Source of the DNA: Patescibacteria group bacterium
GTDB lineage: Bacteria > Patescibacteriota > Patescibacteriia > Patescibacteriales > UBA12465
Assembly (NCBI GenBank): GCA_035269015.1
Contig: DATFJU010000016.1
Coordinates: forward strand, 4,610 to 68,609
DNA length: 64,000 bases
Direction of reading: 5' to 3'
Within the stretch, counting starts at the first letter, position 1. Every line of letters starts with the position of its first letter. The position numbers were made by a program, and so were the translations under genes. The notes beneath the pieces are model-generated. The model worked only from the letters and a program-made list of their open reading frames with translations. It did no database searches and had not been told where the DNA came from. Shown here piece by piece: positions 11,069-50,251 of this stretch.

Positions 11069-11075
11069 AGTAAAA

Positions 11076-11712: not shown

Positions 11713-11722
11713 CATTAAATTA

Positions 11723-12919: not shown

Positions 12920-12982
12920 GTATTTGTTACTTACTATAGTTAGGATTTAGATATAAACAATTTAAATTTTCTTAGCGCTTAG

Positions 12983-15618: not shown

Positions 15619-16044
15619 ATGAATAAACTATTTTTAATAATTATTGTTTTAATATTACTTTTAAGTACGGCTTTTTTTGTTAATAAAATTGATGAAGTAA
15701 AGATAAAAAATACTATTTTTCAAGTAGAAATAGCGGATGAGAGTAATGAGCGCCAGAAAGGTTTAAGCAACCGCAATTATTTGTGTGGCAACTGCGCCAT
15801 GCTTTTTGTTTTTGAGGATAGTAAGCCAAGAACTTTTGTAATGAGAGAAATGATGATGCCAATTGATATTTTGTTTATCAATAATAATATAATTACTGAT
15901 ATATATAAAGATTTAGAACCTGAAGGTAAAAATTATAATAACTATTATAAAAGCTCATCATCAGCAAATATGGTTTTAGAAATTAATGCTAATTATAGTG
16001 ATAGACATGACATAAAAGTAGGAGATGAGATAAATATTTACTGA
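15619..16044 (+). CDS. DUF192 domain protein
   Basis: A signal anchor plus (I)ADESNERQKGLSNR...MLFVF....FVMREMMMPIDILFI, which is typical DUF192. Confidence 0.7.
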   Translation: MNKLFLIIIVLILLLSTAFFVNKIDEVKIKNTIFQVEIADESNERQKGLSNRNYLCGNCAMLFVFEDSKPRTFVMREMMMPIDILFINNNIITDIYKDLEPEGKNYNNYYKSSSSANMVLEINANYSDRHDIKVGDEINIY

Positions 16045-16045
16045 T

Positions 16046-16825: not shown

Positions 16826-16829
16826 TTTA

Positions 16830-18939: not shown

Positions 18940-19159
18940 AATTTTATTATACCATTTTTTTGTCTTTAGTGATAAAATATATATAAGTAGTTACTTTTTT
19001 ATAATTAATTCGTTATATTATAGGCAACTAGTTACTTGCTAATAATTAATTAGCAATTTAAAAAATATAAGTTAAGAAAATATTTTTAAACGGTTTTGTT
19101 TAAGTTTTAAAAGCTGACGAGTTTTTAAACTATCAAGACTAAGTTAAAAAACAAGTAGC

Positions 19160-19720
19160 ATGGATAAAAATGAATCTCAATTAATTAAAAAATGTCAAAA
19201 CGGTTCTTTGGAAAGCTTTGGCCCCTTGTATGATAAGTATATTAAGAAAATATATAATTATCTGTATTATAGGGTGCCTGATAAAGCTGTGGCAGAGGAC
19301 GTTTGTAGTCAAACTTTTATTAAAGCTTTAAAAGCAATTAATTCTTATAGTGAAAATAAGGGAACTTTTTCAGCTTGGCTGTACAGAATTGCTAAAAATA
19401 ATTTAATTGATTATTATCGTGCTTATAAAAATGATTTAAATGTTGATGATCTTTGGTATTTAGAAGATGATACTGACATTGAAAGCACTGCAGATAAAAA
19501 AGTTAAATTAGACAAAATTAAGAATTGTTTAAATCATTTAAAGAAAGAGCAAAAAGAAATTATTATTTTACGAGTTTGGGATGAACTTACATATAGTGAG
19601 ATTGCTGAGATTGTAGATAAAAGTGAAACTAGTTGCAAAATGATTTTTTCTCGTAGTTTGGAAAAAATAAAACAAGAATTACCATTGAGCTTATATTTAT
19701 TACTATTATTAAATTTTTAA
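19160..19720 (+). CDS. ECF-type RNA polymerase sigma-70 factor
   Basis: Region 2 (FGPLYDKYIKKIYNYLYYRV...AEDVCSQTF) and region 4 (LKKEQKEIIILRVWDELTYSEIAEIV). Confidence 0.8.
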   Translation: MDKNESQLIKKCQNGSLESFGPLYDKYIKKIYNYLYYRVPDKAVAEDVCSQTFIKALKAINSYSENKGTFSAWLYRIAKNNLIDYYRAYKNDLNVDDLWYLEDDTDIESTADKKVKLDKIKNCLNHLKKEQKEIIILRVWDELTYSEIAEIVDKSETSCKMIFSRSLEKIKQELPLSLYLLLLLNF

Positions 19721-19723
19721 TAT

Positions 19724-21298: not shown

Positions 21299-21329
21299 TA
21301 TAGATAAAAGAAAGAAATATTAATATAAC

Positions 21330-21365
21330 AAAAAAGAGCTATCTTGGTTGATTTAGCTCTTTTTT
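21330..21365. terminator. Bidirectional intrinsic terminator
   Basis: aaaaaagagcta (21330-21341) pairs with tagctctttttt (21354-21365). It sits between convergent genes. Confidence 0.6.
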
Positions 21366-21387
21366 GTTATTGAGTAACTTATATTTA

Positions 21388-21945
21388 TTAAGCTCTTTCT
21401 ACATATTCTCCTGTCTCTGTGTTTATTCTAATTATATCTCCTTCATTGATAAATAAAGGGGCGTTGATATTTGCTCCTGTTTCTATTTCTACGGTTTTAT
21501 TAACATTACCGGCGCTGTTACCTTTTACTCCTGGAGGAGAAGATATTACTTTAAACTCCATTTTAATAGGGAGCTCTATGCTCACCGCTTGTGATTGGAA
21601 ATACAGCACTGTTACTTCTGTTCCTTCTTTAAGGTACTTAACTTGTTCTCCAAGTTGGTCTAAATCTAAAGAAAATTGTTCATAGGTTTCATTGTTCATA
21701 AAATATGCTTCATTTTCATCTTTATATAAATAATCAGCTTTTTTTCTCTCTGTTTCAGCTTCTTTCGCTTTATCATTTCCTTGAAAAGTTTTATCTAAAA
21801 CATTACCGTTAATTAAGTTTTTTAGTTTAGTTTTTAATACAGCTCCACCTCTAGCCATTTTATGATGATGTGTTTCAGTTATCAAGTAAGGTTCGTTATT
21901 TTCTTCAATAACTTTACCTACTTTAAGTTGATTAATGTTAAACAT
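21388..21945 (-). CDS. efp: Elongation factor P (Arg at the loop tip)
   Basis: EF-P length and motifs are present (LKVGKVIE..NEPYLI, VLKTKLKNL, FMNNETYEQ). The residue aligned with E. coli K34 is R32 (KMARGGA). Confidence 0.9.
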   Translation of the reverse strand: MFNINQLKVGKVIEENNEPYLITETHHHKMARGGAVLKTKLKNLINGNVLDKTFQGNDKAKEAETERKKADYLYKDENEAYFMNNETYEQFSLDLDQLGEQVKYLKEGTEVTVLYFQSQAVSIELPIKMEFKVISSPPGVKGNSAGNVNKTVEIETGANINAPLFINEGDIIRINTETGEYVERA

Positions 21946-21950
21946 AGTTT

Positions 21951-22157
21951 TTATTTATGTGTAGCAGAGAGTAAGGCAACAACCCTGGCTCTTTTTACAG
22001 CAGCAGTTAACTTTCTTTGGTGCCATGAACAAACCCCAGTTCTTTTGCCTGGTAATATTTTCATGTAGAAATTTATAAATTTACGTAGTGTTCTGACATC
22101 TTTGTAATCAACTTCTAAGTTGTTAGCACAAAAATAACATTCTTTATTTTTTGACAT
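21951..22157 (-). CDS. rpsR: Ribosomal protein S18
   Basis: CYFC...DYKDV..LRKFI...[31 protein letters not shown]. Confidence 0.9.
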
Positions 22158-22180
22158 ATTATTTATTTATTTAATTTATT

Positions 22181-22636
22181 TTAAAAGGGTATATTTTCTA
22201 CTTTAATTTCTTCATCGTCACTGTTTTCTTCTTCTTGTTGAATAACCGGCTCTGAAGCTTGATTATTTTGAGCATAATTATTGTTAGTTGTAGGTGCGCC
22301 ACCTCCGCCTTTGCTGTCTAGCATGATCATGTTGTCTGCAACTATTTCAGTTTTATATCTTTTATTACCATCTTGACCTGTCCAATCAGATGTTTGTAAT
22401 CTTCCTTCAATGTATACTTTTGAACCTTTCTTTAGATATTGACCACAGATTTCTGCTAATTTTCTCCAGGCTACAATATTATGAAACTCAGCTTTTTGTT
22501 GTTTTTGTCCAGACTGATCTGTCCAGGTTAGATTAGTGGCTACAGAGAAACTGGTAACAGGCTGTCCATTAGCGGTAGAGCGAGTTTCAGGATCTCTAGT
22601 AACGTTGCCAATAATCATGGCTTTGTTTAAATCCAT
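22181..22636 (-). CDS. ssb: Single-stranded DNA-binding protein
   Basis: An OB fold (NKAMIIGNVTRDPE.R....G), a G/N/Q-rich linker and an acidic tip ending ENIPF. Confidence 0.9.
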   Translation of the reverse strand: MDLNKAMIIGNVTRDPETRSTANGQPVTSFSVATNLTWTDQSGQKQQKAEFHNIVAWRKLAEICGQYLKKGSKVYIEGRLQTSDWTGQDGNKRYKTEIVADNMIMLDSKGGGGAPTTNNNYAQNNQASEPVIQQEEENSDDEEIKVENIPF

Positions 22637-22652
22637 ATAAATATTGTTAATA

Positions 22653-23276
22653 TTATTTAATTAAATCTTGCGCATCTAAAATATTATCTAGTTTATCATC
22701 AAGGTCTTTTAAATTGTCATCTTTTTCTTTTTTCTCTTCTTTATCTTTTCTCTCTTCTTCTTTATCTTCTTTTTTGTCCGCTTCTTTATCTTTTTTCTCT
22801 TTTTCCTCAATTTTTTCCTCAACTTTTTCCTCAACTTTTTCTTCTTTTTCAGCACTTGTGCTTGTAGTTTCTTCTTTTTTGCTTGTCTTTTGTGTGTCTT
22901 TTTCGTCTTTATTTTTACTTAAAGCTTCTTGTTTAGCTTTTTCAGCATTAATTTCTTCTAAAGTTCTCTTCTTTATTTTAATAATTTGAAATCTAATAAT
23001 CTTATCAAATAATCTTAGATTTTCATTTAACTCTGGTAGGCTTTCAGTTTCTAGGTCGAATTCTAAAAGACTGTAGTAACCAAAGTGATTGTGTTTAATT
23101 GGGTAAGCTAATTTCTTTTTACCCCAAAACTCTTTGTAAGTTATTTCTCCTTTATATTTGCTAATAATACCTTCTACATCTTGAGATATTTTTTTAGCTT
23201 CTTCTTCAGTGTACTCATTAGCGATTATGAATAGAACTTCATAATGCCCTGGTCCTGATGGTTTTGTTTTTGACAT
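22653..23276 (-). CDS. rpsF: Ribosomal protein S6 with a roughly 100-aa K/E-rich C-terminal extension
   Basis: S6 core (HYEVLFII....EEEAKKI...V..IISKYKGEI...EFWGKKKLAYPIKH...GYY) in the conserved order rpsF-ssb-rpsR. The tail contains repeats such as EEKVEEKVEEKIEEKEKKDKE. Confidence 0.85.
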   Translation of the reverse strand: MSKTKPSGPGHYEVLFIIANEYTEEEAKKISQDVEGIISKYKGEITYKEFWGKKKLAYPIKHNHFGYYSLLEFDLETESLPELNENLRLFDKIIRFQIIKIKKRTLEEINAEKAKQEALSKNKDEKDTQKTSKKEETTSTSAEKEEKVEEKVEEKIEEKEKKDKEADKKEDKEEERKDKEEKKEKDDNLKDLDDKLDNILDAQDLIK

Positions 23277-26519: not shown

Positions 26520-29500
26520 TTATTGTGATTGTTTTTTTAGACAATCTTTTTTACATAAAGAAGTGTACAAGATTGGAACAATTATTAGGTTCAAAACAGT
26601 AGAAAATATTAAACCAAAAATTACAGCTAGACTAAGCCCTCTCCACATTTCATTAGCAAATATAAGAGGGAAAATACCAGCAATAGTGGTAATAGAGGTA
26701 ATAAGAATTGGTTGCATACGAGCAATCCCTCCTTCAATTACTGCTTCAGTAAACTCTAACCCATCTTTAATATTTTTATTAATTCTATCAATTAAAACAA
26801 TGGCATCATTTACTACAATACCAGCTAGTGAAACTATACCAATAAATACAGCAATTGAAAATGGCTGTCCAATAGCAAATAAACCTAAAATAACTCCAAT
26901 AATTGCCAAGGGTAATGCAAATAATATTATTAATGGCTGTTTAAAGGAGTTAAATTGCAATATTAATATTGCTCCTATTAAAAATATTGCAATAATCATA
27001 GAATAAAACATTTCCATGTATGACTTTTCAATATCTTCAGTTTCTCCTCCAATCTCTATGTTGCTATTATCTGGCAGGTTGTATCCTTCTATTTCTTGTT
27101 TAAAGTTTTGAGTGATTTCTTGTAGGTTGGCTCCCTTTTTAAGTTCTGCGGTAACGGTGGCAATTTGTTTACCGTTTTTATGCTCTATAGTTAAAAGTGA
27201 TGGTTCTAAGTTTAAATTAGCAACTTGTTTTAAAGGGATTTCTTCACCCCTTTGGTTGATAATTAATAGGTTTTTTATGTCATCAATATTAGTAAAATCT
27301 TCTTGTGCGTATTTAACAACTATATCGATATCTTCATCATTTAAGTTAACAGTAGAGGCTGTGGTGCCTGACAGGGCGTTTCTAACAGTGCTAGCAATAG
27401 CTGAGGTGTTAAGGGAGTAGTAATTAGCTTTTTGCCTGTCTATACTAAAAACAAATTCTCCAGTAGCATTACTCAAACTAGTTTCAATATTAATAGCATT
27501 ATTTACGCTTTCAAAATACTTCATTACCTTTTCGCTGTATTTAGATAAGGTTTTACTATTGTCTGAGAAAATCCTTACTTCTATGGGTGCTCCGCTAGGA
27601 GGTCCAGCTGCCATTTCATTGACTTTAACTTCTGCATCTTGTATGTTTTTTATTTGCTCTCTTAAGTTTTCTGCAATAGTAAAACTTGTTTTTTCCCTTT
27701 CATCTTTTTCTGAAATGTTTACTGTAATAGTAGCTTTATTTCTTGAGTCTGATGAGGACATCATGTCAGTACTCATTTCAGTGCCAATGGTAGTTACATA
27801 ATTTTTTAATTCAGGTATTGTGGCTACTTTTTCTTCAACTTTAGTGGTCACATCTTTGGTTTTTTCTAAACTTGAACCTACTGGCAATTCAATGTTTACA
27901 TAAAAATATTCAAAGTCAATTTTTGGAAACATTTCTATGCGCATAAGACCGGAAACAGGGATAGCAATAGTTGCTATAAATATAATCCAAGCACTAATAA
28001 TAATTGTTCTTCTTTTTTTCTTGTAAGGAAGTATGTTGCTTAGTTGTTTCCTGTATTTAGTGGCTAATTTAGATATTTGTTTATTAATAACTTGATGTCT
28101 TTTTTTATTTCTTCCACCACCATTACCATTTGTTTTAATTTTAAGGAATCTTGTTACTAAGGTAGGAATAATAATTAAAGCTACAAATAAACTGGAAAGC
28201 AAGGTTACAATTAAAGTTTTAGGAATGATACTAATGTATTCTCCCATAATTCCTGAAACTAGTAGCATGGGTAAAAAGGCAGATACAGTGGTTAAAGTTC
28301 CTGCAGTGATAGCAGCTTTAAAATTCCAAATAGAGAGTATAGCAGCTTCATAAACACTACGTTTATGTTTTACTACATATTCATTTATACCCTCTATTAC
28401 TACAATAGCATTATCCACCATTAGTCCTAAAGATAAAACTAATGAAAAAAGGACCATGCTATTTATAGACATATCTTGTAACATTAAAAAAATGAAGGAC
28501 ATTAAGAAAGCTATAGGCACGGCTAGAGCAGTAATAATTGCTCCTCGTAAACTAAGTATTGTTAACAATATTAAAGCGATAAGGATAAATGTTTGAATAG
28601 CACTTCCTCCTAAAATATTTAAATCTTCTTTAATGTATTTAGAATTATCATTAGTTTTTTCAATTTTTATTGTACTAGGTATAGTTTTGTTTTCTTGTAG
28701 TGAAGAAATAGTGTTTTCTGAATTATCTACAATATTTAAAATGTTTCCTCCAACCTTTTTATATATTTGTAAGGATATAGTATTTTGAGGATCTTCATCT
28801 GGATAGGCAATTCTAGACTCAGTAGACTTTTCTTTGTAGGTATCTTTGATTGTAGCGACATCTTCTAAAAATACAGGAGAGTTCTCATAGGTGGTAACAA
28901 CTAAAGTATTTAAATCACTAGCTTGAGTTATTTTACCCCTAATTCTTACTCCATACCTATATTCATCTATTTCAATAATACCAGCTGGTAAATTAAAGTT
29001 AGTGTTATTTATAGAATTAACTACTTGCCCTAAAGATAAATTATAAGTACTTAATTTGTTTTCATTTATTATCACTTGAAATTCTCTTTCTAGACCACCT
29101 ATTATCTCAACTTTAGAAACATCAGCTACTGACTCTAGTTCTTCTTGAAGTGTATCAGCATATTTTTTTAACTCACTATCACTATAATTACCAACTAAAG
29201 AATAAGTAACAATAGGCATATCACTAAGTCTTATTTCAGTAACTTCAGGACTACTAGCATCACTGGGTAATCTTGGTTTTACTCTATCAACAGCTTCTCT
29301 TAATTTTTGGAAACTATCTTGCAGGTTTGTTTCAGCGTTATATTCTACAAATACAGAAGAAAAGCCTAGACCAGAACTAGAGTTATAATTATTTAAATTT
29401 TCTAAGTTTTTTATTTCGTTTTCTACTTTATTTGTTATTAAAGTTTCAGTATCACTAGGACTAGCGCCAAGATAGGTTGTGGTAATAACAGCATAAGGAA

Positions 29501-29696
29501 CTTTAACTTCTGGTTGAGCTTCTTTTGGTAAGGTAAAAATAGCAAAAAATCCAAAAACAATAATTAATAACATTATTAAGTAAGTAAAGCGGTAATTGGT
29601 AATAAAAAAGCCAAGCCAAGATTTCTTTTCTCTTTTTAGAGCTTGATCTAATTTCCTTTCTTTGTTTTCTATATATTCTTGATTATCAGTATTCAT
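26520..29696 (-). CDS. RND-family efflux transporter permease (AcrB/HAE-like)
   Basis: 1058 aa with the 12-TM, two-large-loop architecture. Conserved TM4-type segment LSLGLMVDNAIVVIE, repeated as SLAGIVVNDAIVLID. Confidence 0.9.
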   Translation of the reverse strand: MNTDNQEYIENKERKLDQALKREKKSWLGFFITNYRFTYLIMLLIIVFGFFAIFTLPKEAQPEVKVPYAVITTTYLGASPSDTETLITNKVENEIKNLENLNNYNSSSGLGFSSVFVEYNAETNLQDSFQKLREAVDRVKPRLPSDASSPEVTEIRLSDMPIVTYSLVGNYSDSELKKYADTLQEELESVADVSKVEIIGGLEREFQVIINENKLSTYNLSLGQVVNSINNTNFNLPAGIIEIDEYRYGVRIRGKITQASDLNTLVVTTYENSPVFLEDVATIKDTYKEKSTESRIAYPDEDPQNTISLQIYKKVGGNILNIVDNSENTISSLQENKTIPSTIKIEKTNDNSKYIKEDLNILGGSAIQTFILIALILLTILSLRGAIITALAVPIAFLMSFIFLMLQDMSINSMVLFSLVLSLGLMVDNAIVVIEGINEYVVKHKRSVYEAAILSIWNFKAAITAGTLTTVSAFLPMLLVSGIMGEYISIIPKTLIVTLLSSLFVALIIIPTLVTRFLKIKTNGNGGGRNKKRHQVINKQISKLATKYRKQLSNILPYKKKRRTIIISAWIIFIATIAIPVSGLMRIEMFPKIDFEYFYVNIELPVGSSLEKTKDVTTKVEEKVATIPELKNYVTTIGTEMSTDMMSSSDSRNKATITVNISEKDEREKTSFTIAENLREQIKNIQDAEVKVNEMAAGPPSGAPIEVRIFSDNSKTLSKYSEKVMKYFESVNNAINIETSLSNATGEFVFSIDRQKANYYSLNTSAIASTVRNALSGTTASTVNLNDEDIDIVVKYAQEDFTNIDDIKNLLIINQRGEEIPLKQVANLNLEPSLLTIEHKNGKQIATVTAELKKGANLQEITQNFKQEIEGYNLPDNSNIEIGGETEDIEKSYMEMFYSMIIAIFLIGAILILQFNSFKQPLIILFALPLAIIGVILGLFAIGQPFSIAVFIGIVSLAGIVVNDAIVLIDRINKNIKDGLEFTEAVIEGGIARMQPILITSITTIAGIFPLIFANEMWRGLSLAVIFGLIFSTVLNLIIVPILYTSLCKKDCLKKQSQ

Positions 29697-29706
29697 ATAT
29701 CAAGTA

Positions 29707-31503
29707 TTATTTAATTTGAATTAATGAGTTGTTTTCTATAGATTTAGAACCGTCTATAATTATTTCATTACCAATTTTTAGCCCTGATTTGATTTCTACT
29801 AAATTACCCTGGCTGTCACCTAAAGTCACTATTTGTTTTTTAGCAGTTAATTCATTATTTTCATTAAGTTTTACTAGATAAACATAGTTTTCAGTTTGAG
29901 TTATGGTTAAAGCTTCTAAAGGAATCATAATAACCCCACTTTTAACAGAGTTTTTATTATTTTTTTTAATCATCACATCTACAAAAGTTCCGGGAATTAA
30001 TTTTTTATTTTTATTATCTACTAATATTTCTACTTCTACTTTTTTAGTTTGTTCGTTAGCACTAGGGGCAATATTAGTAATCTTTGCTTTTATATCTTGA
30101 TTAATAATTACTTCTTGCCCTAAGTTAATTTGATATATATCTTCAGATGGTAAATTAATTACCACTTTAACGTTATTAGTTTGAGAAATGCTAGCAATTA
30201 CTTGCCCAGGATTTAATTCTGCACCGACTTCCACATTTTTTGAAGTAATTTGTCCTGATATAGGAGCACTAATAATTAAATCAGCTAACTGTTCTTGAGA
30301 CAAGTTTAGTTGTCCTAGAGCTGAGTCAACCTGTGACTGAGCCGAAAGTATTTGTTGTTTTTTAGATTCCCTTGCAGAATTTAGACTTACTAAAGCATTG
30401 TTATATGATATCTCAGCATTATTTAATTGATTCTGTGTCCCCTGAATGTTGTTTTTTAAAGCAATACGTTCTTTTTCTTGACTTAATTCAATAGTGCTTA
30501 AATTATTTAAAGTATTTTCTGCTGATTGCAGTGAACTGTTAACAGTGTTATATAATCTAGAAAACTTTTCTTGTTCTGCATTTAAGGCGCTTTGTGGAAA
30601 ATTGCTACTAGAGACAGTATTATCTAAAACAATAATTGTTTCATTGGTTAGAGTTTTAGTTTCTCTAAGCAAATCAATTATTTTTTCTAGCCTTTCTTCA
30701 ATGTTTTGACTTTCAACCGGTTCATCTTTTAAGTTATTATAAGTGCTTTTAGTGTTTTTATAAGTATTTTTAACTTTAACTAAAGCTGAATAGCTTTTAG
30801 CACTAAGAGTTGCTTTAATTTCTTCAAGTCGTGGACCTGGCTCAGCGCCAATAATATAGTTAACGTCTTCTAAAGCATCTTTAACAGTTTGTAGATAGTT
30901 ACTATAAGAAATAACAGCGCTGTTTTTAGTATCAACTAGATTTTTTTCTTGTAAAGAGATGGTGCTTTCATAATTTTCTTGAGCTGACTTCAGAGAAATT
31001 TCTGCATTATTAATTGCTTCTTGAGCTTGTATTACACCTATTTCAGCTTGTTCAACATTAGATTGGGTAGTTCTTTTTACAGCTTCTAAATTACTAAGCA
31101 TATTATAGTAATTAGTTTGTGCATTCTGATAACCTGTACGTGTGGTATTGCTTTTTAAATAGGCTAAAACTTGACCAGCGTTTATTTGATCGCCTCTATC
31201 AAATGATAATGACTGTATAGTCCCTTTAGCTAAAACTGTCACATCTACCTTAGTTTCAGCATTTACAGCTCCTACAGTCTCTATATATAGATTATTTGAG
31301 CTTGATGTAGCATTATTAATTGTCATCGTTTTTACTTCAAATAATCTTTCTTGTTCAGAATTATTTTGATTAGTGTCTTCTAGGTTATTATTTTTTTGTT
31401 TTTGTAGGGCACCATAGGCTCCATAGCCGAAAATAGCAATAATAATAACACTAGCTATTATTATAATAAGCTTTTTTTTCGGGGATTTTTTATTTTCATT
31501 CAT
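29707..31503 (-). CDS. Efflux adaptor (membrane fusion protein, HlyD/RND-MFP family), unusually long
   Basis: An N-terminal TM anchor, a lipoyl-like half-motif (VLAKGTIQSLSFDRGDQINAGQVLAYL...ISAPISGQITSKNVEVGAELNPGQVIA) and a very long Q/N/S/E-rich helical hairpin. It ends 10 nt upstream of the RND permease. Confidence 0.8.
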   Translation of the reverse strand: MNENKKSPKKKLIIIIASVIIIAIFGYGAYGALQKQKNNNLEDTNQNNSEQERLFEVKTMTINNATSSSNNLYIETVGAVNAETKVDVTVLAKGTIQSLSFDRGDQINAGQVLAYLKSNTTRTGYQNAQTNYYNMLSNLEAVKRTTQSNVEQAEIGVIQAQEAINNAEISLKSAQENYESTISLQEKNLVDTKNSAVISYSNYLQTVKDALEDVNYIIGAEPGPRLEEIKATLSAKSYSALVKVKNTYKNTKSTYNNLKDEPVESQNIEERLEKIIDLLRETKTLTNETIIVLDNTVSSSNFPQSALNAEQEKFSRLYNTVNSSLQSAENTLNNLSTIELSQEKERIALKNNIQGTQNQLNNAEISYNNALVSLNSARESKKQQILSAQSQVDSALGQLNLSQEQLADLIISAPISGQITSKNVEVGAELNPGQVIASISQTNNVKVVINLPSEDIYQINLGQEVIINQDIKAKITNIAPSANEQTKKVEVEILVDNKNKKLIPGTFVDVMIKKNNKNSVKSGVIMIPLEALTITQTENYVYLVKLNENNELTAKKQIVTLGDSQGNLVEIKSGLKIGNEIIIDGSKSIENNSLIQIK

Positions 31504-41496: not shown

Positions 41497-43959
41497 ATGG
41501 AAAGAAAGTTCATCGAAGTTAAAGGCGCAAAAGTAAATAATCTAAAGAATTTAAGTCTAAAGTTACCTCGCAATAAGTTTATTGTCATCACAGGTTTATC
41601 TGGTTCAGGTAAATCTTCTTTAGCTTTTGATACTATTTACGCTGAAGGTCAAAGAAGATATGTCGAGTCTTTATCAGCCTATGCTCGTCAATTTATTGAT
41701 TTAATGGACAAGCCTGATGTTGAATCTATTGAAGGTTTATCACCAGCTATATCAATTGATCAAAAATCTGTTTCGCATAATCCTCGCTCTACAGTGGGAA
41801 CGATTACTGAGATATATGATTATCTTAGACTTTTGTTTGCTAAAATAGGTGTTCCTCATTGTCCTTTATGTAATAAAAGGCTAGTTAAGCATATATCCAA
41901 AGATAGCAAGCATAATCCTTCTGTTTTTTTAGTATGTAGAGACTGCAATTTTCATATGACGCAACTTAAGTCAGGTGATTTTTCTTTTAACTCATCTCAA
42001 GGAGCTTGTTCTAGTTGTAAAGGCCTGGGTACACGCTTAGAGTTAGATCCTGAATTAATTATTAATGAAAAGTTAAGTATTAATGAAGGGGCTATAAGAC
42101 CGCTTTCTAGATGTAGAGTTTCAGGATTGAAAGACATGTTATCAGACATGGAAAAAGCAGCTAAAAAATTTAATATTGATTTAAATACGAGTGTAAAGGC
42201 ACTTAAAAGTGATTCTTTAAATACAATATTGTATGGCAAAGACTCTTGGGGAGGTATTTTACCTTTTTTACAAAAAAGATATGAAGAAACAGAGTCTAGG
42301 TATTTACAAGAAGAATTAGGACAATATATGAGAGTTTTACTTTGCTCTGCTTGTGATGGTAGAAGATTAAAACCAGAGTTTTTAGCGGTGAAAATGGCTG
42401 GTTATAGTATAGATGAAATAGTAAATAAAAATATCACAGAGTTACAAGAGTTTTTTAAAGTTTTAAGTAAAAGTAATAAAGTTAATGAAAAGGATAAACA
42501 AGTTTATATCCCAATTGTTAGAGGCATAATGAATAAATTATTACTTTTACAAAATGTTGGCTTAGAATATCTTTCACTTGATAGAAGTGCCACTACTCTT
42601 TCAGGTGGAGAAGCACAAAGAATTCGTTTAGCCACTCAGGCTGGATCATCTTTAATAGGGGTTCTTTATATTTTAGATGAACCTTCTATTGGTTTACATC
42701 AAAGAGATAATGGTAAATTAATTAAAACTTTAAAAATATTAAAAGATAAGGGAAATACGGTTATAGTTGTTGAACATGATGAAGCTACTATTTTAGCTGC
42801 TGATCATATAGTAGATGTAGGTCCAGGAGCAGGTGAGCATGGTGGTGAAATAATATTTCAGGGTAGTCCTACCCAAATAAAAAAAAGTAATAAATCAATT
42901 ACTGGTAAATACTTAATAGGTAAGAAAAAAATACCTACACCTTTAAGTTATCATAAGGGAAATAAAAAGTTTTTAGAAATACTAGGAGCTAGTGAGCATA
43001 ATTTACAAAATATTAATGTAAAAATACCTTTGGGTAAGTTTGTTGCTATTACTGGTGTTTCTGGTTCGGGTAAATCTACTTTAATGAGTAATATTTTAGC
43101 AAAAGCACTTAGTAAAAAGTTTTATAGAGCTAAAACTTTTCCAGGGCAACATAAAGAAATTAAAGGTTTAGATAATATTGATAAAGTAATTAATATAGAT
43201 CAATCTCCAATAGGAAGAACACCTCGTTCCAATCCAGCTACTTATACGGGAGTTTTTACTCCTATCAGGGAGCTGTTTGCTGATTTAGCTGAAGCTAAAT
43301 TAAAAGGTTTTGATGCTGGTTCTTTTTCTTTTAACGTGCCAGGAGGTCGTTGTGAAAATTGTAGTGGAGATGGGTCAATAAAAATTGAAATGCAATTTTT
43401 ATCAGATGTCTATGTTAAATGTGAAGTTTGCCAAGGTAAGCGCTATAAAAAGAAAGTTTTAGATATATATTATCGTGATAAAAATATTCATGATATTTTA
43501 GAGATGACTGCAGAAGAGGCTATGAATTTTTTTAGACATAACCCTACTATTTATCAGAAGTTAAAAGTATTATATGAAGTAGGACTTGGTTATATTAAAT
43601 TAGGTCAACCTGCTACCACTCTTTCTGGAGGTGAGGCTCAAAGAATTAAATTGGCTACAGAACTTTCTAGAAGAGCTACTGGTAAAACAATATATATATT
43701 AGATGAACCGACGACTGGTTTACACTTTGATGATATTGATAGACTACTTAAAGTCTTAAATAAACTAGTTGATAAAGGAAATACTGTTTTAGTGATAGAA
43801 CATAATTTGGATGTTATTAAATCAGTGGATTGGGTTATTGATTTAGGTCCTGAAGGTGGAGATATGGGTGGAAAGATTGTAGCTGAGGGCACACCTAAGC
43901 AAGTGTCTAAGATAAAAAAGAGCTATACAGGGCAATATCTAAAAAATGTTTTCAAATAA
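41497..43959 (+). CDS. uvrA: Excinuclease ABC subunit A, short class-II-like form lacking the UvrB-binding domain
   Basis: Two ABC modules ([12 protein letters not shown] and [10 protein letters not shown]; signatures LSGGEAQRI twice) and three Zn modules. It is 820 aa, and only 21 residues lie between C122/C125 and C147/C150. Confidence 0.85.
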
Positions 43960-44038: not shown

Positions 44039-44812
44039 TTAATTTAAAGCATCAAGTATTTGTTTATGGACTTTGCCGTTACTAGCTATAATATCATAAC
44101 TGTTTAAGTTCCATGTTTTATTATTAAAATCTGTTACTTTGCCCCCAGCTTCTTTTACCAGCAGTGCTCCAGCTACTACATCCCAAGAATTAGCTCCAGG
44201 AATTGTAATTGATTCTACTCTAGCGCTAGCAACATAAGCTAATTCCATAGAAGCGCTCCCTAGTTGTCTGGCATCAAATTGTGCCAATTTTTGTTTATTG
44301 TAATAACGTATAGCTTTTTTAATATGTTTTTTTTGGCTACCATGACAAAAAGTGTTAATCACTTTTTCACCACTAAATTTAGAAACTTTTATTTTTTTAT
44401 TATTTAAATAAGCTCCTTTATCTTTTTCTGCATAGAAAAACTCATTTAAAGTAGGAGAATATATTACAGCCAAAACAACTTTATTTTTATAACTTAAACC
44501 AATAGAAGTGGCCCACAAAGGGTTGTGCATAGAGAAGTTGGTAGTGCCATCAAGGGGGTCAATAAACCATTTATAGTCAGATTTACTTTTAGTTTCACCT
44601 GATTCTTCTGCTAATATTTGATGTTCAGGAAAACTTTTACGTATTGTTTTGATTATTTCTTTTTCTGCAGCCACGTCTGCGGCTGTTAATATTTCATGTT
44701 TTGATTTAAAACTTACTTTACTACGATCAAACTTTTGATATTCTTTTAAAAGTATTTGTCCTGCTTTTCTAGCTGCTTCAGTAGCCGTGTCTTTTATTTT
44801 TTTATTAATCAT
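44039..44812 (-). CDS. Inositol monophosphatase family protein (SuhB-like)
   Basis: WFIDPLDGTTNF and the WDVVAGALLVKEAGG motifs. Confidence 0.85.
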   Translation of the reverse strand: MINKKIKDTATEAARKAGQILLKEYQKFDRSKVSFKSKHEILTAADVAAEKEIIKTIRKSFPEHQILAEESGETKSKSDYKWFIDPLDGTTNFSMHNPLWATSIGLSYKNKVVLAVIYSPTLNEFFYAEKDKGAYLNNKKIKVSKFSGEKVINTFCHGSQKKHIKKAIRYYNKQKLAQFDARQLGSASMELAYVASARVESITIPGANSWDVVAGALLVKEAGGKVTDFNNKTWNLNSYDIIASNGKVHKQILDALN

Positions 44813-44837
44813 AATTAATGTGAATAATTTTCTTTAT

Positions 44838-45335
44838 TTAGGAGATAGTTTCTAATATTTTTAATTCTAGTTTTTTATTTTCTGTGTCATATATAGCAAA
44901 AGTAGCTTTTTGGAAAACCCCTCCTAAGGTTCCTGGATTAACTATTTTTATTTGACCTTGTTTTTCAATCCACGGTTTATGTGTGTGACCATAGAAGATT
45001 ATATCTAAGTCAGGTCGTTTTTCAATTAAGTCATATATGTAATGCGGTTCATGACAAAGACCAAATTTAGTATTTGCTAGTGATATAATTCCAGTTTTAC
45101 CTAAATGGTGAACATTTTTATATTCATGAAATAATTGTGGTTCATATAACTCTATATTTCCAGAGATGATATAAATATTTTTATTAAAATTCTCAGCTAA
45201 AATCTTAGCACTTTCTTCATTTGTTAAATCACCTGTACAAAAAATAATATTAACATTGTTGGTGTTAGCATAATTAATAAATTTATTCAGATTCTTTAGA
45301 TTATCGTGAACATCTGAAATAATAGCTATTTTCAT
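44838..45335 (-). CDS. YfcE/MJ0936-family metallophosphoesterase
   Basis: ISDVHDN, GDL, GN and GHTH motifs in about 165 aa. Confidence 0.8.
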   Translation of the reverse strand: MKIAIISDVHDNLKNLNKFINYANTNNVNIIFCTGDLTNEESAKILAENFNKNIYIISGNIELYEPQLFHEYKNVHHLGKTGIISLANTKFGLCHEPHYIYDLIEKRPDLDIIFYGHTHKPWIEKQGQIKIVNPGTLGGVFQKATFAIYDTENKKLELKILETIS

Positions 45336-45355
45336 ATTATTATTAGTTATAAAAA

Positions 45356-45925
45356 TTATTTCCTAATACTAATATCATAGTTAACTTGTTCAATCTTTTT
45401 CAAGTGTCCTCTAGCTTGATCATATTTAGTTCTTAGATAACCTGTGAAATCAAATTCAGTTAGAGAGGCTAGAAGTTCAGAAGCATCTTCACTAGCTCTT
45501 GTCACTTCCTTTATATTTTGTTTAGTAGCTTGATTAGTGGAGTATCTGGCCATCTCACCAACTAAATCTGATATAGCACCTAAGTATGATTCATGACTTA
45601 ATTTAACTCCTTTTAATTTTTCAATCTTAAACTTTGTTAACCATTGCCAAAAAAGATGAGCTTCTAAAAACTCTTCTATAGCTGCTTTGTATGAGCCTTC
45701 TTGTTCTAAGCGATTAACACCAAGATTTTTTTGTAGTTTTTTAATATCTTCCTCTAGTTGCTTTAAGTCAGTTTCAGCTTTTTTAAAATCTTGTCTATGT
45801 AGAGAAAAAATAATTCTTTTAGAATCGTGTAAAATAGGGTTGCTGGATTGAATTATTTTACTTCTTTCCTTCTTTTTCTCTATGTGTTCTTTTTTAAGCT
45901 TTAGAGCAAATGATTTTCTGATCAT
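45356..45925 (-). CDS. Translin-family protein
   Basis: All-helical, about 190 aa. YLGAISDLVGEMARY matches the translin G.xDLxGELxR signature region. Confidence 0.5.
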   Translation of the reverse strand: MIRKSFALKLKKEHIEKKKERSKIIQSSNPILHDSKRIIFSLHRQDFKKAETDLKQLEEDIKKLQKNLGVNRLEQEGSYKAAIEEFLEAHLFWQWLTKFKIEKLKGVKLSHESYLGAISDLVGEMARYSTNQATKQNIKEVTRASEDASELLASLTEFDFTGYLRTKYDQARGHLKKIEQVNYDISIRK

Positions 45926-45957: not shown

Positions 45958-48900
45958 TTACTTTAATGATCTAAAAGCTTCATCTAAAGTAGTATATCCC
46001 TTTAGGGCTTTAATAACTCCATCTTGAAGCATAGTAACTGTTCCTGCCTTTATAGCTAGTTCTTCTATTTCGTGGTCAATAACTTCTTGGCTTTGAATGG
46101 CTTTTCTAATTTCGTTGGATACTTCCATAACTTCATAGATACCAATTCTGCCCTTATAACCTAAACTGTTGCATTTAGGACAGCCTTTACCTTTATAGAA
46201 CTTTAATTCTGATGGAATTTCAACTTTTGCTTTATCGCTAATACTATCTAAAACTTCTTTAACATCATTTAGTTGTTTTTCATCAATTTTAATCTCTTCC
46301 TTACAATGAGGACAAACTCTTCTAGCTAGTCTTTGTCCTATTGAAGCTTCTAGAGCGCTAGCAAGTAGTTGTCTAGGTACATTTAGTCCACTTAAACGAC
46401 TAACTGCACTAGCTGCGCTGTTAGCATGTAAAGTGGAGAGAACAAGGTGTCCAGTAGTAGCTGCTTCAATGGCCATATTAGCAGTTTCTTCATCTCTAAT
46501 TTCACCGACCATCATAATATTAGGATTTTGGCGAAGTAGTGATTTCATGGCTGCGGCGAAGGTGTAGCCTTGGTCCGCATCAATTTGTGTTTGCATAAGT
46601 CCAGGCATTTGGTATTCTATTGGATCTTCTACAGTAATAATCTTTACATCTGGAGTATTTAATTTATTTAAAGCAGAATAAAGAGTAGTAGTTTTACCTG
46701 AACCAGTAGGACCAGTAGTGATTATAATACCTTTAGTTTTAGAAATGGATCTGGTTAGCGGTTCTAAACTGTATTTTTCCATACCTAATTCTTTAAGATC
46801 AAGGCTTTGAGCTTGTGATGCTAGCAGACGAATTACAATAGTTTCACCATAACCTCCTGATATAATAGAAACACGACTATCAGCTTTTTTCTCAGGCATT
46901 TTAATACTAAAACGACCATCAATTGTAGGCTTTTTTATATTTGTAGCTACACCAATTAATATTTTTATTTTTGATAATAATGGTAAATAATGGTCTTTTG
47001 ATAAATCAAGCACATCATGTAATACCCCGTCTATTCTAAAGCGTAATTTAACAGTATTTTCAGTTGGTTCAATATGAATATCACCGGCTTCAGATTCTAC
47101 TGCCATAGCAATAATTATCTTAAGTAATTTTTTCACAGGTACATCTTTAAAACTGGTATTAATATTTGCTAAATCTTCACTTAATTTTTTAGCTTCATCA
47201 ATATCTTCTTGACTAATCTTTATACCTCTACCTATAGTTTGAGAAATAACAATATCATATAGTTCATCAATATAGTCAGTATTACCAATTACTCTATATA
47301 TTTCTTCTAAACTAGTTAATCCTTTTATAGCTTTCAAAACACCGTCTTGAAGCATGGTAATCATGCCATTTTCAATAGCTTGTTGTAGTATTTTAAAAGA
47401 GGCAGCACTTTTCATAATAAGCTCTTTTATTTCATCATTTAAGGTAAATATTTCATATATACCAACTCTTCCTTTGTAACCAAGACCATTACATTTTTCG
47501 CAACCTTTGGGGTTTTTTTTATATAGTTTTGGAATATCTGTAGGGACTTCAATATTAGCTCTTGGTGAGATTACAGCTAGTATTTTTTTAAGTTTTTCCT
47601 CTTCTTCTTCATTAGGTTGATATTCTATTTTACAATCATTACACAGTTTTCTAACCAATCTTTGACCAATAACAGCATTAATTGAAGGAACTAAAAAATA
47701 TGGTTTTACTCCCATATCTATTAAACGAGGAATAACTCCTGAAGCATCATTTGTATGCAAAGTAGATAACACTAAGTGACCAGTTAAACTAGCCTGTACT
47801 GATATTTCTGCTGTATCAAGATCACGAATTTCACCAACCATCACAATATCTGGGTCTTGTCTTAAAACAGAGCGTAACCCATTGGCAAAAGTATATTCTT
47901 TTTTTCTGTCAATCTGACTTTGGTTTACTCCTTCTAATTGATATTCAATTGGATCTTCTAAAGTAACTATTTTAGTTCCCGGTTCATTAAGTTTATTTAA
48001 AATAGAGTATAGAGTGGTAGTTTTACCTGAACCCGTAGGACCAGTTGTTAGTATTAATCCATTAGGCTTTTTAATTTCTTCTTTTAATATTTCAAAAGCT
48101 CCCTCACTAAGTCCCAATTCTTCAAACCCTAGCTGAATAGATCCTGATCTGAGTATTCTCATTACAACACTTTCTCCGAAGGCTGTAGGTAAAAATGAAG
48201 CACGTACATCAATCTGTTCTTTAGGTAAATGAATTTTAAATCTACCATCTTGAGGTTTCCCTTCAATATTTATTTTTACACCGGCTAAAAGCTTTAAACG
48301 GGAAATAATTCTTTTCCATTGTTCTTTTTTAATGGTTGCTGCTTCTTGTAAAACACCATCAATTCTTAGTCTTACTACTATTTCCTTTTCTTCAGCTTCA
48401 ATATGCACATCACTAACATCGACTTTAATAGCAGTAGCTAAAATAAGGGTAACAATATCACTAATATTTACTTCATTTATCTTTTCATCTAGTTTTTTAT
48501 AGTCTGTGATTTCGTTTTTAAATTTTTCTAAATCTTCAGCTGGAATTTCTACACCGCTATCGTATTTTTTTACTTTAGGTATAGATTTATATACTTCTAA
48601 AGAGTAATTGAAACTATGATCAGAAATTAAATATATCTTGCTTTTAGTATAATATTTAGCATTAATTCTTTCTTTTATTTCTTTAGCTGCTTTAGCTTCA
48701 GGATCAGTAGTAGCTAAGCGAACATTAGTTCCATCATAATAAAAGCAAATAACTTCTTTTTCTTTAGCCTCTTCTTCATCTATTAATACGATTGCGTCAG
48801 GACTTATAGGAAAAGCAAATAGATCAACATATTCTAAACCTGCTTTCTCAGCTTTAGCCATAGTTTGCGCTTCCATTTCTTTTATTTTGATTTCTTTTTG

Positions 48901-48987
48901 TTTTTTAGCTAATTTTCCTTGGACAGTATCTCCATCTTGAACTTTCTTAGAATTAATTAAATTATCAATAGAGTTATAATCAGACAT
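45958..48987 (-). CDS. Type II/IV secretion (PilB/GspE-family) ATPase with two complete tandem ATPase modules
   Basis: An N-terminal T2SSE_N-like domain (aa 1-135). Module 1 spans about aa 172-569 and has Walker A GPTGSGKTT at aa 316-324, Walker B IVTLEDPIEY, a GEIRD Asp box, a TGHLVLSTLHTND His box, and CNDC...CEKC. Module 2 spans about aa 615-1009 and carries the same set: Walker A at aa 759-767, IITVEDPIEY, GEIRD, TGHLVLSTLHANS, and CPHC...CPKC. Confidence 0.85.
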   Translation of the reverse strand: MSDYNSIDNLINSKKVQDGDTVQGKLAKKQKEIKIKEMEAQTMAKAEKAGLEYVDLFAFPISPDAIVLIDEEEAKEKEVICFYYDGTNVRLATTDPEAKAAKEIKERINAKYYTKSKIYLISDHSFNYSLEVYKSIPKVKKYDSGVEIPAEDLEKFKNEITDYKKLDEKINEVNISDIVTLILATAIKVDVSDVHIEAEEKEIVVRLRIDGVLQEAATIKKEQWKRIISRLKLLAGVKINIEGKPQDGRFKIHLPKEQIDVRASFLPTAFGESVVMRILRSGSIQLGFEELGLSEGAFEILKEEIKKPNGLILTTGPTGSGKTTTLYSILNKLNEPGTKIVTLEDPIEYQLEGVNQSQIDRKKEYTFANGLRSVLRQDPDIVMVGEIRDLDTAEISVQASLTGHLVLSTLHTNDASGVIPRLIDMGVKPYFLVPSINAVIGQRLVRKLCNDCKIEYQPNEEEEEKLKKILAVISPRANIEVPTDIPKLYKKNPKGCEKCNGLGYKGRVGIYEIFTLNDEIKELIMKSAASFKILQQAIENGMITMLQDGVLKAIKGLTSLEEIYRVIGNTDYIDELYDIVISQTIGRGIKISQEDIDEAKKLSEDLANINTSFKDVPVKKLLKIIIAMAVESEAGDIHIEPTENTVKLRFRIDGVLHDVLDLSKDHYLPLLSKIKILIGVATNIKKPTIDGRFSIKMPEKKADSRVSIISGGYGETIVIRLLASQAQSLDLKELGMEKYSLEPLTRSISKTKGIIITTGPTGSGKTTTLYSALNKLNTPDVKIITVEDPIEYQMPGLMQTQIDADQGYTFAAAMKSLLRQNPNIMMVGEIRDEETANMAIEAATTGHLVLSTLHANSAASAVSRLSGLNVPRQLLASALEASIGQRLARRVCPHCKEEIKIDEKQLNDVKEVLDSISDKAKVEIPSELKFYKGKGCPKCNSLGYKGRIGIYEVMEVSNEIRKAIQSQEVIDHEIEELAIKAGTVTMLQDGVIKALKGYTTLDEAFRSLK

Positions 48988-49078
48988 ATGAAGTAATAGT
49001 TATTAAATTACTATATATTTATATATAGTTCTTATATATAGTTTTTATTTATATAGTAATATAAAAAATAATGGAAAA

Positions 49079-50083
49079 TTATTTTTTACCCTTTTTCTTT
49101 TTGTTAGCTTTTTTTGCTTTTTCTTTATCTTTTAACCTTTTAATTTTACTAACTCCTTTTTTATCAAGTAATTCAAGAAAAAGCTTTGTCCAAGAATTAA
49201 TTAAAAAGGCTGTTAACATAGATCCAAGCCATATAATAGCTAATAATAAAACGGTTAGACCTAAAAATGTTATTAACCAAAAGATAGCAAAGTTAGCAAA
49301 GATGAGACTTAAGATTATAAACGGAGCTACAAGTGCAAATATAGCTATTAGCATTATTAAGCCCACAAATATGTTTACTATTACTAAAATAAAGGCCATT
49401 TCTATACTAACAACCCAATTTTTGGAAAATAGTTTAAAGGCATTATCAATTGCTTCTGTAAATTTATTACCTTTAATAACAATATAAGCAATAGCGTATT
49501 TTGCTATTAAAGAGAGACCTATTACAACGGGAACAAAAATTAAAAATAAGATAATGTAAATTGCAATTGGTAGCCAGGAGTTAGAAGCTGTTAAGATAAT
49601 AGGGAGGGTTATTAAAAAGAATATACAAGTAATAATTACTTTAATTAATACATTTACACCTAGTACTGGCCAAAAATTTGCTTGTCCTGTTAGCATACCT
49701 TTACTAATACCTAAATCTTTCTTTTCTTTGTTATATAATTTTTTAGCTTGATCAACTAAAGCTGCTTGTGAACTGATTGTTATAATAACTAAAAGTATAG
49801 ATATTGCTAGAGTTAAAATTAATAGAATAATACTAATTAAAGCTCCTCTAGGATCCTCTGCAAAATAAGGACCAATGTTTGACCATAATTCAGGATTGAA
49901 AATTGTTAAAAAACGATCCATTCCATTTGAAACTGTATTGCTGTTGTTTTCAATAATACTATTTATTATTTGATACTCACCACCAGCGCCTAAGAAGGTA
50001 GCAAATAAACCAAAGAACCAAAGATACTTGTTGTGCCAAGTGATTTTTAGTGATTGTCTTAAGATTTTACGATAAGAAAACAT
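49079..50083 (-). CDS. Polytopic membrane protein, unknown function (GPDPase-membrane-domain-like), with a lysine-rich tail
   Basis: The N-terminus YRKILRQSLKITWHNKYLWFFGLF and about 7 TM segments resemble the DUF/GPDPase_memb family. It is preferred over the antisense ORF at 49071-49487. Confidence 0.5.
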   Translation of the reverse strand: MFSYRKILRQSLKITWHNKYLWFFGLFATFLGAGGEYQIINSIIENNSNTVSNGMDRFLTIFNPELWSNIGPYFAEDPRGALISIILLILTLAISILLVIITISSQAALVDQAKKLYNKEKKDLGISKGMLTGQANFWPVLGVNVLIKVIITCIFFLITLPIILTASNSWLPIAIYIILFLIFVPVVIGLSLIAKYAIAYIVIKGNKFTEAIDNAFKLFSKNWVVSIEMAFILVIVNIFVGLIMLIAIFALVAPFIILSLIFANFAIFWLITFLGLTVLLLAIIWLGSMLTAFLINSWTKLFLELLDKKGVSKIKRLKDKEKAKKANKKKKGKK

Positions 50084-50251
50084 AATTTTAAATTAATATA
50101 GCTAAAAAGCCTTTTTTAATTAGTATTTTATATATATAATTATACCATAAGAACCAATACTTGCCAATTTAAGTGCTTTCAGATAATTGCTAAATAAAAT
50201 TAAATAATATACAATAAAAATACTAATGTATAAATATATAAGTGATATATT

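Follow-up and report, generated by a model that had tools for sequence, protein, structure and literature searches.

How would a filament-assembly motor be built if two of its motor modules were joined in one polypeptide chain? This question is raised by a gene for a 1009-residue ATPase at positions 45958..48987 (reverse strand) of the DNA analysed here, a 64,000-nucleotide stretch from a Patescibacteria group bacterium (NCBI assembly GCA_035269015.1, contig DATFJU010000016.1, positions 4,610 to 68,609), which we call the window. A first-pass annotation had described the gene product as two complete motor modules in one chain and had held that known motors of this kind consist of single-module subunits. 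The question bears on a wider one, as PilB, GspE and PilT motors are studied as homohexamers, and it is debated how ATP turnover proceeds round the ring and is handed over to the membrane platform, including whether C2 or C3 symmetry applies and how many active sites are needed. We find that the protein is a conserved PilB/GspE-type paralogue of the type IV filament assembly ATPases, found almost only in Patescibacteria. In the PDB, searched by sequence and by fold, no chain spans more than one module and none covers more than ~36% of the query, and neither the PDB nor the literature that we searched yielded a tandem example within the PilT/VirB11-like secretion ATPase family. Nor did we find a tandem PilB or GspE described in the full-text literature searched, which has most subscription journals outside its scope and includes a 2024 review of PilB, the MshEN paper, the CPR protein-family survey and the study of two pili in Saccharibacteria.

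Results

Two complete motor modules in a single reading frame

The gene is a single open reading frame (ORF) with an ATG start and no internal stop codon, in a window with a G+C content of 28.8%. Its product is matched in two stretches by the Pfam profile T2SSE (PF00437; E = 4e-235), the better of which (residues 175-565) aligns with positions 8-370 of the 370-position profile and places the protein in the PilT/VirB11-like superfamily, and the NCBIfam GspE and PilB profiles each match it twice as well. A hidden Markov model (HMM) built from the modules puts the two units at residues 172-569 and 615-1009, the very bounds proposed in the first-pass annotation, and a BLAST comparison of the protein with itself aligns residues 141-575 with residues 576-1009 at 44% identity over 422 residues (E = 1e-133). 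Module 1 (47281..48474; all coordinates within this gene are on the reverse strand) consists of an N2D domain (residues ~172-285) and a RecA-like C-terminal domain (CTD, residues ~286-569), and module 2 (45961..47145) is composed in the same way of an N2D (residues ~615-728) and a CTD (residues ~729-1009). Between them lies a junction of residues 570-614 (47146..47280), in which a conserved motif is followed by a variable helical linker.

Ahead of module 1, and only there, stands a single N1D domain of the GSPII/MshEN-like type (residues ~45-140, 48568..48855), the N-terminal domain that characterises PilB/GspE-type ATPases. This region had been called T2SSE_N-like; as a profile match the call is marginal, with MshEN scoring 23.5 bits at residues 50-104 against a cut-off of 23.1, and it is the end-to-end alignment of residues 45-570 with full-length Myxococcus PilB (3jc8), obtained in a PDB sequence search, together with the predicted fold that upholds the presence of the domain. 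In the predicted model the N1D has an alpha/beta fold at residues 51-135, preceded by a long N-terminal helix (residues 22-49) and a disordered tip. Because residues 45-570 are collinear with a full-length PilB, the protein can be described as a complete PilB to which an extra N2D-CTD unit has been added. The cyclic di-GMP-binding motif of MshEN domains is a 24-residue pattern of the N-terminal domain, RLGxx(L/V/I)(L/V/I)xxG(L/V/I)(L/V/I)xxxxLxxxLxxQ (PMC5013675). Regulation by cyclic di-GMP in the manner of MshE was considered and rejected, since the relaxed motif of that study is matched nowhere in the 1009-residue protein.

Both active sites are retained under constraint

The Walker A sequence GPTGSGKTT occurs at residues 316-324 (48016-48042) and 759-767 (46687-46713), exactly at the nucleotides and with the 443-residue offset reported before, and both modules also carry (I/V)T(L/V)EDPIEY, GEIRD, TGHLVLSTLH and four cysteines, the latter arranged as CNDC...CEKC in module 1 and as CPHC...CPKC in module 2. 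Along the chain of a PilB or GspE the motifs run in the order Walker A, Asp box, Walker B, His box, and this order is found in both modules. While every motif sequence listed in the first-pass annotation, both tetracysteine motifs included, is present in both modules, two of the names had been exchanged: by the convention of the family, which we take to be that EDPIEY is the Asp box and hhhhGEIRD an atypical Walker B with the catalytic Glu, the labels Walker B and Asp box were swapped. The tetracysteine motif binds zinc in PilB/GspE-type ATPases and is absent from PilT.

Conservation was computed on a close family, comprising the query and 120 relatives (121 sequences), and on a wider set of 83 tandem sequences that reaches down to 37% identity. 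In the close family, 98-100% conservation is seen for the Walker A Lys (K322 in module 1, K765 in module 2), the Asp-box Glu residues (E344 and E348; E787 and E791), the Walker B Glu (E386; E829), the His-box His residues (H404 and H411; H847 and H854) and the N2D arginines (R206, R208, R249, R262 and R277; R649, R651, R692, R705 and R720), and the zinc-site cysteines (C449, C452, C496 and C499; C892, C895, C936 and C939) are conserved in 100%. Over the wider set, the same classes of residues, with all eight cysteines, are invariant or at least 90% conserved. Comparison with an 89%-identical orthologue (locus L064) gave ratios of non-synonymous to synonymous substitution rates (dN/dS) of 0.079 in module 1 and 0.061 in module 2, and both modules are thus under equally strong purifying selection; the junction has a ratio of 0.135 and the N-terminal region one of 0.131. 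Judged by sequence, both modules retain all residues that ATP binding and hydrolysis, sensing by arginine fingers and the zinc site require, and look catalytically competent, as had been suggested; the loss of catalytic residues in one module, which would have overturned that suggestion, is contradicted by the alignment.

Structure prediction agrees with this picture. AlphaFold2 gave a predicted local distance difference test score (pLDDT) of 34 on the single 1009-residue sequence and of 84 when supplied with the 83-sequence alignment. Each module superposes on the cores of Thermus PilF and Geobacter PilB (TMt 0.88-0.93, root mean square deviation 2-3 Å, 42-46% identity), with a best superposition at TMt 0.93 and 2.0 Å, and the N2D fold and its arginines are conserved in both modules by sequence, predicted model and fold superposition. 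We also considered whether the protein, or module 2 in particular, is a retraction unit of the PilT/PilU type, and rejected this: the PilT profile gives the modules 179 and 159 bits against a subfamily cut-off of 319.1, the strings AIRN and IRNL do not occur and AIRNLIRE is lacking, and both modules have the tetracysteine motif.

The tandem protein forms a widespread family

A word-indexed search of 5.8 billion proteins, clustered at 90% identity, found at least 120 clusters with the same tandem layout; these proteins have 992-1029 residues, are 63-92% identical to the query and cover 98-100% of it. In an exhaustive scan with HMMER, 1.84 billion representatives of 50%-identity clusters yielded 16,092 relatives at E <= 1e-30, and among the best 150 of these are thirteen full-length collinear tandems (P0121-P0133) of 978-1018 residues at 39-63% identity. 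Three of the thirteen and one further protein are special cases, and several others are contig-truncated fragments. When GTDB species were scanned, each through a single genome, 49 of these species-representative genomes proved to hold an intact two-module ORF of ~880-1100 residues; they carry the labels Falkowbacteria, Buchananbacteria, Moranbacteria/Moraniibacteriota, Paceibacterota and Parcubacteria/Patescibacteria group, and the closest relatives of the query are labelled Parcubacteria group, Falkowbacteria and Patescibacteria. The survey of fused PilB-like genes in Patescibacteria that had been called for thus reveals a real two-motor family, conserved in these ultrasmall bacteria and common in the public databases, where its entries bear only the generic names 'GspE/PulE family protein' or 'PilB'. 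What is new, then, is a family undescribed in the searched literature, and not a protein unique to the window.

Some metagenome-assembled genomes (MAGs) with the tandem gene bear odd titles, namely 'uncultured Gammaproteobacteria', 'Bdellovibrionales', 'Pseudobdellovibrionaceae' and 'Saccharibacteria' (loci L016, L018, L019, L024-L027, L044-L046, L048, L050, L051, L055, L056 and L064). As these MAGs share the Patescibacteria-type synteny, their taxonomic labels look unreliable and were treated as such.

The extent of the family also bears on whether the gene is real. Two adjacent pilB-like genes could in principle have been merged by a sequencing error or by assembly collapse, and a related locus (L031, 7758-10782) does hold the tandem gene split into ORFs of 239 and 742 residues, although nothing of the kind is seen in the window. 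The split in L031 is a sequencing frameshift or a pseudogene. Against an artefact, the same uninterrupted layout recurs in the 120 or more clusters, which come from independent samples and assemblers, and in the 49 species genomes, the junction motif is 95-100% conserved, and the junction is itself under purifying selection. The recurrence of a collinear, uninterrupted layout in independent clusters and genomes excludes a collapsed gene pair or a frameshift without read mapping, and since the halves are only 44% identical a collapsed repeat is ruled out too. We therefore consider the chance that the gene is an artefact to be negligible.

The two modules differ and are joined by a conserved junction

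Of the 418 positions at which the modules align, 97 show no variation in either module, and a further 55 are invariant in module 1 alone and 33 in module 2 alone. Module 1 keeps the canonical N2D 'SRLK' Arg, 'PQDGR' and, after the His box, 'TNDA...RL.DMG.KPYF' (residues 412-431), whereas module 2 of the main family instead has 'LSKIK', a variable residue ahead of DGR, and 'ANSA...RL.GL'; it thus lacks the N2D Arg (the equivalent of R230), the Q246 of 'PQDGR' and the TNDA...DMG.KPYF stretch. In its sequence, module 1 resembles the stand-alone PilB proteins of the candidate phyla radiation (CPR), and module 2 is a derived lineage. A further difference lies in the N2D helix-loops at residues 221-246 and 664-689, which in the predicted model stand before the fourth N2D strand and which are conserved inside each module and different between the modules. 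By the order of secondary-structure elements, and not by superposition, these may be equivalent to alpha5/loop 8 of CpaF, a region for which AlphaFold3 models predict contact with the platform in extension ATPases (PMC12019362).

Residues 570-591 of the junction (47215-47280) form a motif specific to the family, FDYxDxLYDIVISQTxGRGIKI, in which Y572, L576, Y577, D578, G586 and G588 are each at least 98% conserved in the close family; the conserved stretch begins within module 1, at Y564 (47296-47298). The predicted model has a low-confidence hinge at residues 580-586. As residues 570-614 contain no Met, module 2 is unlikely to be translated on its own from a start codon among them.

Origin of the tandem and its independent re-invention

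A neighbour-joining tree was computed for 158 modules aligned in 395 profile columns. Of the 15 tandem proteins, 12, with the query among them, have their module 2 in a single clade (bootstrap 54/100), which also contains a fragment and two proteins that stand alone, P0167 and P0193. The copies of module 1 are intermingled with stand-alone CPR PilBs, and P0140, a 584-residue Parcubacteria protein, is the sister of module 1 of the query. From this clustering we conclude that the duplication or fusion is older than the spread of the main family. The first-pass annotation had called the gene tandem-duplicated and proposed a phylogeny of the halves to date the event; the two modules stand and the event can be placed in order, but the duplication itself may instead be a fusion of two paralogues, alternatives that the neighbour-joining tree does not separate.

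Three tandem proteins have a different history, in that their own two modules are sisters: P0128 (bootstrap 90/100), P0130 (100/100) and P0137 (99/100). This relationship implies that their tandems are of independent and more recent origin. P0128 (L005:10001-12985) and P0130 (995 residues, on a 7-kb contig, with modules ~75% identical) were each seen on a single contig. P0137 (1047 residues, L006:10001-13144, NCBI GCA_964384625.1, contig CAYLNH010000035.1) begins with ~226 residues that hold two soluble T2SSF (PilC/GspF-type) domains without a transmembrane segment in place of the N1D, followed by two full T2SSE modules. Its genomic context is not that of a CPR bacterium, with sulfatases, CBM9 and a pair of extracytoplasmic function sigma and anti-sigma factor genes directly upstream. 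That the tandem layout was re-invented at least three more times, once in fusion with platform-like domains, suggests that the two-module unit is a natural building block.

The tandem gene is an orphan among housekeeping genes

The tandem gene stands away from pilus loci. Inspection of its neighbours bore out the earlier remark that no pilC, pilM, pilN or pilin gene is adjacent, and a six-frame scan of the window found no class-III signal-peptide motif. When the window was searched by phmmer with Moraniibacteriota PilC, PilO-like, PilT and PilB proteins and three pilins, only the tandem gene was found (pilM and pilN had no query of their own). CPR pilus components are reported to co-localise as a rule (PMC6744442). 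Among tandem loci, only 2 of 56 have a pilC within 10 kb, compared with 19 of 25 loci of single-module pilB (Fisher p = 2e-11), so that co-location with pilus or type II secretion machine genes is not a feature of the tandem gene. One of the nearby cases is L038, with pilC 5.5 kb upstream. In L052, from Moraniibacteriota, the tandem gene (9908-12934, forward strand) lies 3-10 kb from a canonical pilus cluster on the opposite strand (15967-22808) with a PilO-like gene, pilB (592 residues), pilT (362 residues), pilC (two T2SSF domains) and three pilins that bear a KGFTLIELL signal. The presence of this pilB-pilT-pilC-pilin cluster makes the tandem protein an additional paralogue there, and not the only motor.

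In the window, the tandem gene is the second of a run of five genes in the same orientation. The probable first gene of the operon (49079..50083, reverse strand; 91-nucleotide gap) encodes a 334-residue polytopic membrane protein with a Lys-rich C-terminal tail that belongs to no Pfam or NCBIfam family. We considered it as a divergent PilC and rejected this, as it has no Pfam or NCBIfam match, hhalign against a 21-sequence PilC alignment gave a probability of 1.2%, and the gene is absent from loci of the Moranbacteria type. In 26 of the 56 tandem loci a gene for it directly precedes that of the ATPase, in the same orientation (median gap 15 nucleotides), and it could be a membrane partner in the lineage of the query. 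Upstream of it is the best promoter-like site, TTGGCA-17-TATAAT with an extended TG (50139..50167, reverse strand; 11 of 12 matches), which is a consensus match only; in total, promoter-like sites are no more numerous than in shuffled controls. A hydrophobic, low-complexity ORF of 138 residues that lies antisense inside the membrane-protein gene (49071-49487, forward strand) is almost certainly no gene.

The three genes downstream (44039..45925, reverse strand) follow with gaps of 20-32 nucleotides and encode a Translin-family protein (45356-45925; Pfam PF01997, E = 1e-25) directly after the ATPase, a YfcE-type metallophosphoesterase (44838-45335) and an inositol-monophosphatase-family protein (44039-44812), all on the reverse strand. 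The NCBIfam models that match the Translin-family protein bear the odd name 'haloacid dehalogenase superfamily protein'. This gene order recurs in ~25 loci, L001 and L003 among them. On the opposite strand, the operon adjoins a gene for an 820-residue UvrA-like protein (41497-43959, forward strand) with matches to ABC_tran and to the UvrA DNA-binding domain, and does so in 23 related loci. Elsewhere in the window (26520-31503, reverse strand), a full-length AcrB-type resistance-nodulation-division transporter (1058 residues, E = 3e-192) stands beside a 598-residue HlyD-type membrane-fusion protein, a pair that is unexpected in a Patescibacterium-like genome, this group being thought to lack an outer membrane.

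Loci of the Moranbacteria type and other distant loci (L005, L007, L009 and GTDB loci such as L033-L043 and L053) have neighbours that differ from those of the query. In 19 loci ruvB lies downstream on the same strand (median gap ~415 nucleotides), with yebC, ruvC, tsaE and uvrD often near, an arrangement that may be a conserved housekeeping gene order or a functional link. A cytoplasmic, unannotated protein of ~380 residues is encoded just upstream in 15 of the Moranbacteria-type or distant loci; inspection by eye had suggested a DHH phosphoesterase, but no Pfam family matches it at E <= 1e-4. No neighbour is conserved family-wide over the 56 tandem loci, and the synteny therefore looks like lineage-specific housekeeping gene order.

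Discussion

Comparison with known systems

The tandem protein shares with PilB and PilF (Myxococcus 3jc8; Geobacter 5tsg, 5tsh and 6olj; Thermus 5it5, 5oiu and 6f8l) the Walker A, Asp box, Walker B, His box, tetracysteine motif and N2D arginines. It differs from them in the second N2D-CTD unit appended through a conserved junction, in having one N1D for two modules, and in a gene unlinked from pilC, pilM, pilN, pilO and pilT. Thermus PilF, too, has multiplied a part of itself, but there it is the N-terminal GSPII domains, while in the tandem protein it is the motor. With GspE/EpsE (1p9r, 4ksr, 4pht) it has the fold, motifs and zinc site in common, and it is set apart by the tandem layout, the Patescibacterium host, and the lack of gspL, gspF or a pseudopilin gene nearby. 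The CPR survey by Méheust et al. found no PilQ secretin, and CPR bacteria are regarded as lacking a Gram-negative envelope (PMC6744442).

Chains with two or more P-loop ATPase modules exist outside this family. KaiC, NSF, p97, ClpB and EccC are natural tandem ring ATPases, and single-chain ClpX pseudohexamers have been engineered; as in the tandem protein, covalent linkage fixes the stoichiometry and lets sites specialise, but all of these either belong to other superfamilies or are engineered. A different parallel is offered by the platform, whose protomer in PilC/PulF, and in split form in CpaG/CpaH of the Tad system, likewise consists of two T2SSF domains in tandem, although PilC/PulF is embedded in the membrane and the tandem ATPase is cytoplasmic. 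In current models the platform is a homotrimer, each protomer of which touches a pair of ATPase monomers (PMC12019362). Three tandem ATPase chains in one assembly would mirror such a platform, an analogy that motivates a ring model and is no evidence for it.

A proposed alternating ring and its rivals

We propose a single pseudo-hexameric ring, built from three tandem chains with modules 1 and 2 in alternation and seated on a trimeric platform, and we hold the case for this arrangement to be close to even. In such a ring every packing unit of an N2D with the neighbouring CTD would be heterotypic, opposite positions would be occupied by different module types, and there would be three N1Ds instead of six. 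The ring would dock 1:1 (3:3) onto a PilC-like trimer, the platform, whose gene lies elsewhere; each protomer of the platform would contact both modules of one chain, and filament assembly would be driven by the usual sequential ATP cycle, which would require both module types to be active. As opposite sites could never be identical, strict C2 symmetry would be impossible and only pseudo-C2 states could arise, while C3 symmetry would be built in. Given a family whose rings are made by packing N2D on the next CTD, and a trimeric platform that meets two ATPase monomers per protomer, a three-chain pseudo-hexamer is the most economical arrangement. That both active sites have been kept so strictly over deep divergence agrees with a sequential ring whose sites must all fire, and the module-specific N2D surfaces, like the T2SSF-T2SSF-T2SSE-T2SSE fusion of P0137, fit two modules per platform protomer. 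The fuller statement, that the ring is closed and strictly alternating with one chain per platform protomer and so is a natural covalently linked-dimer pilus motor, is offered more tentatively, as something possible rather than probable.

Several observations weigh against this proposal. The whole protein reaches 904 bits with the NCBIfam PilB profile (TIGR02538, cut-off 675.65) and 927 bits with the GspE profile (TIGR02533, cut-off 630.25) because two modules add up; residues 1-575 taken alone score 500.8 and 496.5 bits and residues 576-1009 score 414.7 and 441.7 bits, respectively, all below the equivalog cut-offs and with GspE slightly ahead in the second half. The tandem gene has no gene for a platform, an alignment complex or a pilin linked to it, either in the window or at 54 of the 56 related loci, so that the connection with pili comes through homology alone. 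The match of residues 221-246 and 664-689 to CpaF alpha5/loop 8 reflects the order of secondary-structure elements only. The alignment-based AlphaFold2 monomer (mean pLDDT 84) has a predicted template modelling score of 0.48 and no confident packing between the modules, so a ring cannot be told from a stack in this model. Finally, KaiC, NSF, p97, ClpB and EccC usually stack their domains and do not alternate them, which favours a stacked double ring of six chains, a dodecamer in which module 1 forms an upper ring and module 2 a lower one and in which only the N1D-proximal ring would touch the platform and the second would add force, processivity or regulation. The junction of ~45 residues is long enough for this and has its predicted flexible hinge, and the loss from module 2 of canonical surface motifs kept in module 1 could mean that module 2 does not face the platform. 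However, in rings of this family each N2D sits against the CTD of the adjacent subunit, and models predict that the platform is contacted by the N2D face (PMC12019362). A second ring would lie far from any known partner. Both modules, moreover, keep a full active site and pore-loop residues under equal constraint, and the independent fusion of a T2SSF pair to two modules suggests a logic of two modules per platform protomer. On balance we regard the stacked ring as unlikely, if still a serious competitor to the alternating one.

Two other explanations concern what the motor does and whether all of it works. It may have been recruited to a process other than pilus assembly, for instance the uptake or handling of nucleic acids, perhaps together with the 334-residue membrane protein or with neighbours in DNA or RNA metabolism. 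The consistent lack of linkage to pilC, pilM, pilN, pilO and pilins speaks for this, as do the membrane protein upstream and the Translin, YfcE phosphodiesterase and inositol monophosphatase genes downstream in the lineage of the query, RuvB downstream in 19 loci of other lineages with RuvC, YebC and UvrD near, and the canonical PilB, PilT and PilC that at least one genome (L052) already has. Yet no neighbour is found family-wide, the membrane protein occurs in only 26 of 56 loci, and the N1D, N2D arginines, pore loop and zinc motif are all of the filament-assembly type; to our knowledge, no member of the PilB/GspE-type clade acts without a platform protein. A non-pilus role thus seems to us rather improbable, a shade more so than the stack. 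The remaining explanation is that one module is non-catalytic and serves a regulatory or structural purpose, a pseudo-ATPase alternating with an active partner as in F1 alpha/beta or Torsin/LAP1. Module 2 would be the candidate, being more derived, without the R230 equivalent, Q246 and TNDA...DMG.KPYF, and lower in its PilB and GspE profile scores; but its catalytic residues, its DGR and other N2D arginines and its four cysteines are invariant or at least 90% conserved in the 83 sequences, and its dN/dS, at 0.061, is no higher than in module 1. We consider this explanation very improbable.

Implications

Two non-identical and apparently competent modules in one chain would either fix the order of sites in a ring or define a two-tier motor. 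They also mean that one point mutation would yield defined half-inactive rings, for which other ATPase families have so far needed engineered linked subunits. The tandem protein could therefore serve as a natural "linked-dimer" for testing how ring motors fire, in terms of both symmetry and site usage. If the alternating ring is true, a mutation in one module would inactivate exactly every second site and provide a direct genetic handle on C2 rotary versus C3 firing and on the number of active sites that the motor needs.

For the bacteria themselves, it is of interest that a 3-kb extra motor gene is kept under strong purifying selection in tiny genomes, beside housekeeping genes and apart from the pilus loci, which implies an important function. 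Type IV pili drive host attachment and motility in Patescibacteria (PMC9894109, PMC11623550). Should the alternating ring prove true, the tandem family would constitute a second, separately encoded class of motor in a group of organisms whose pili are central to their episymbiotic life.

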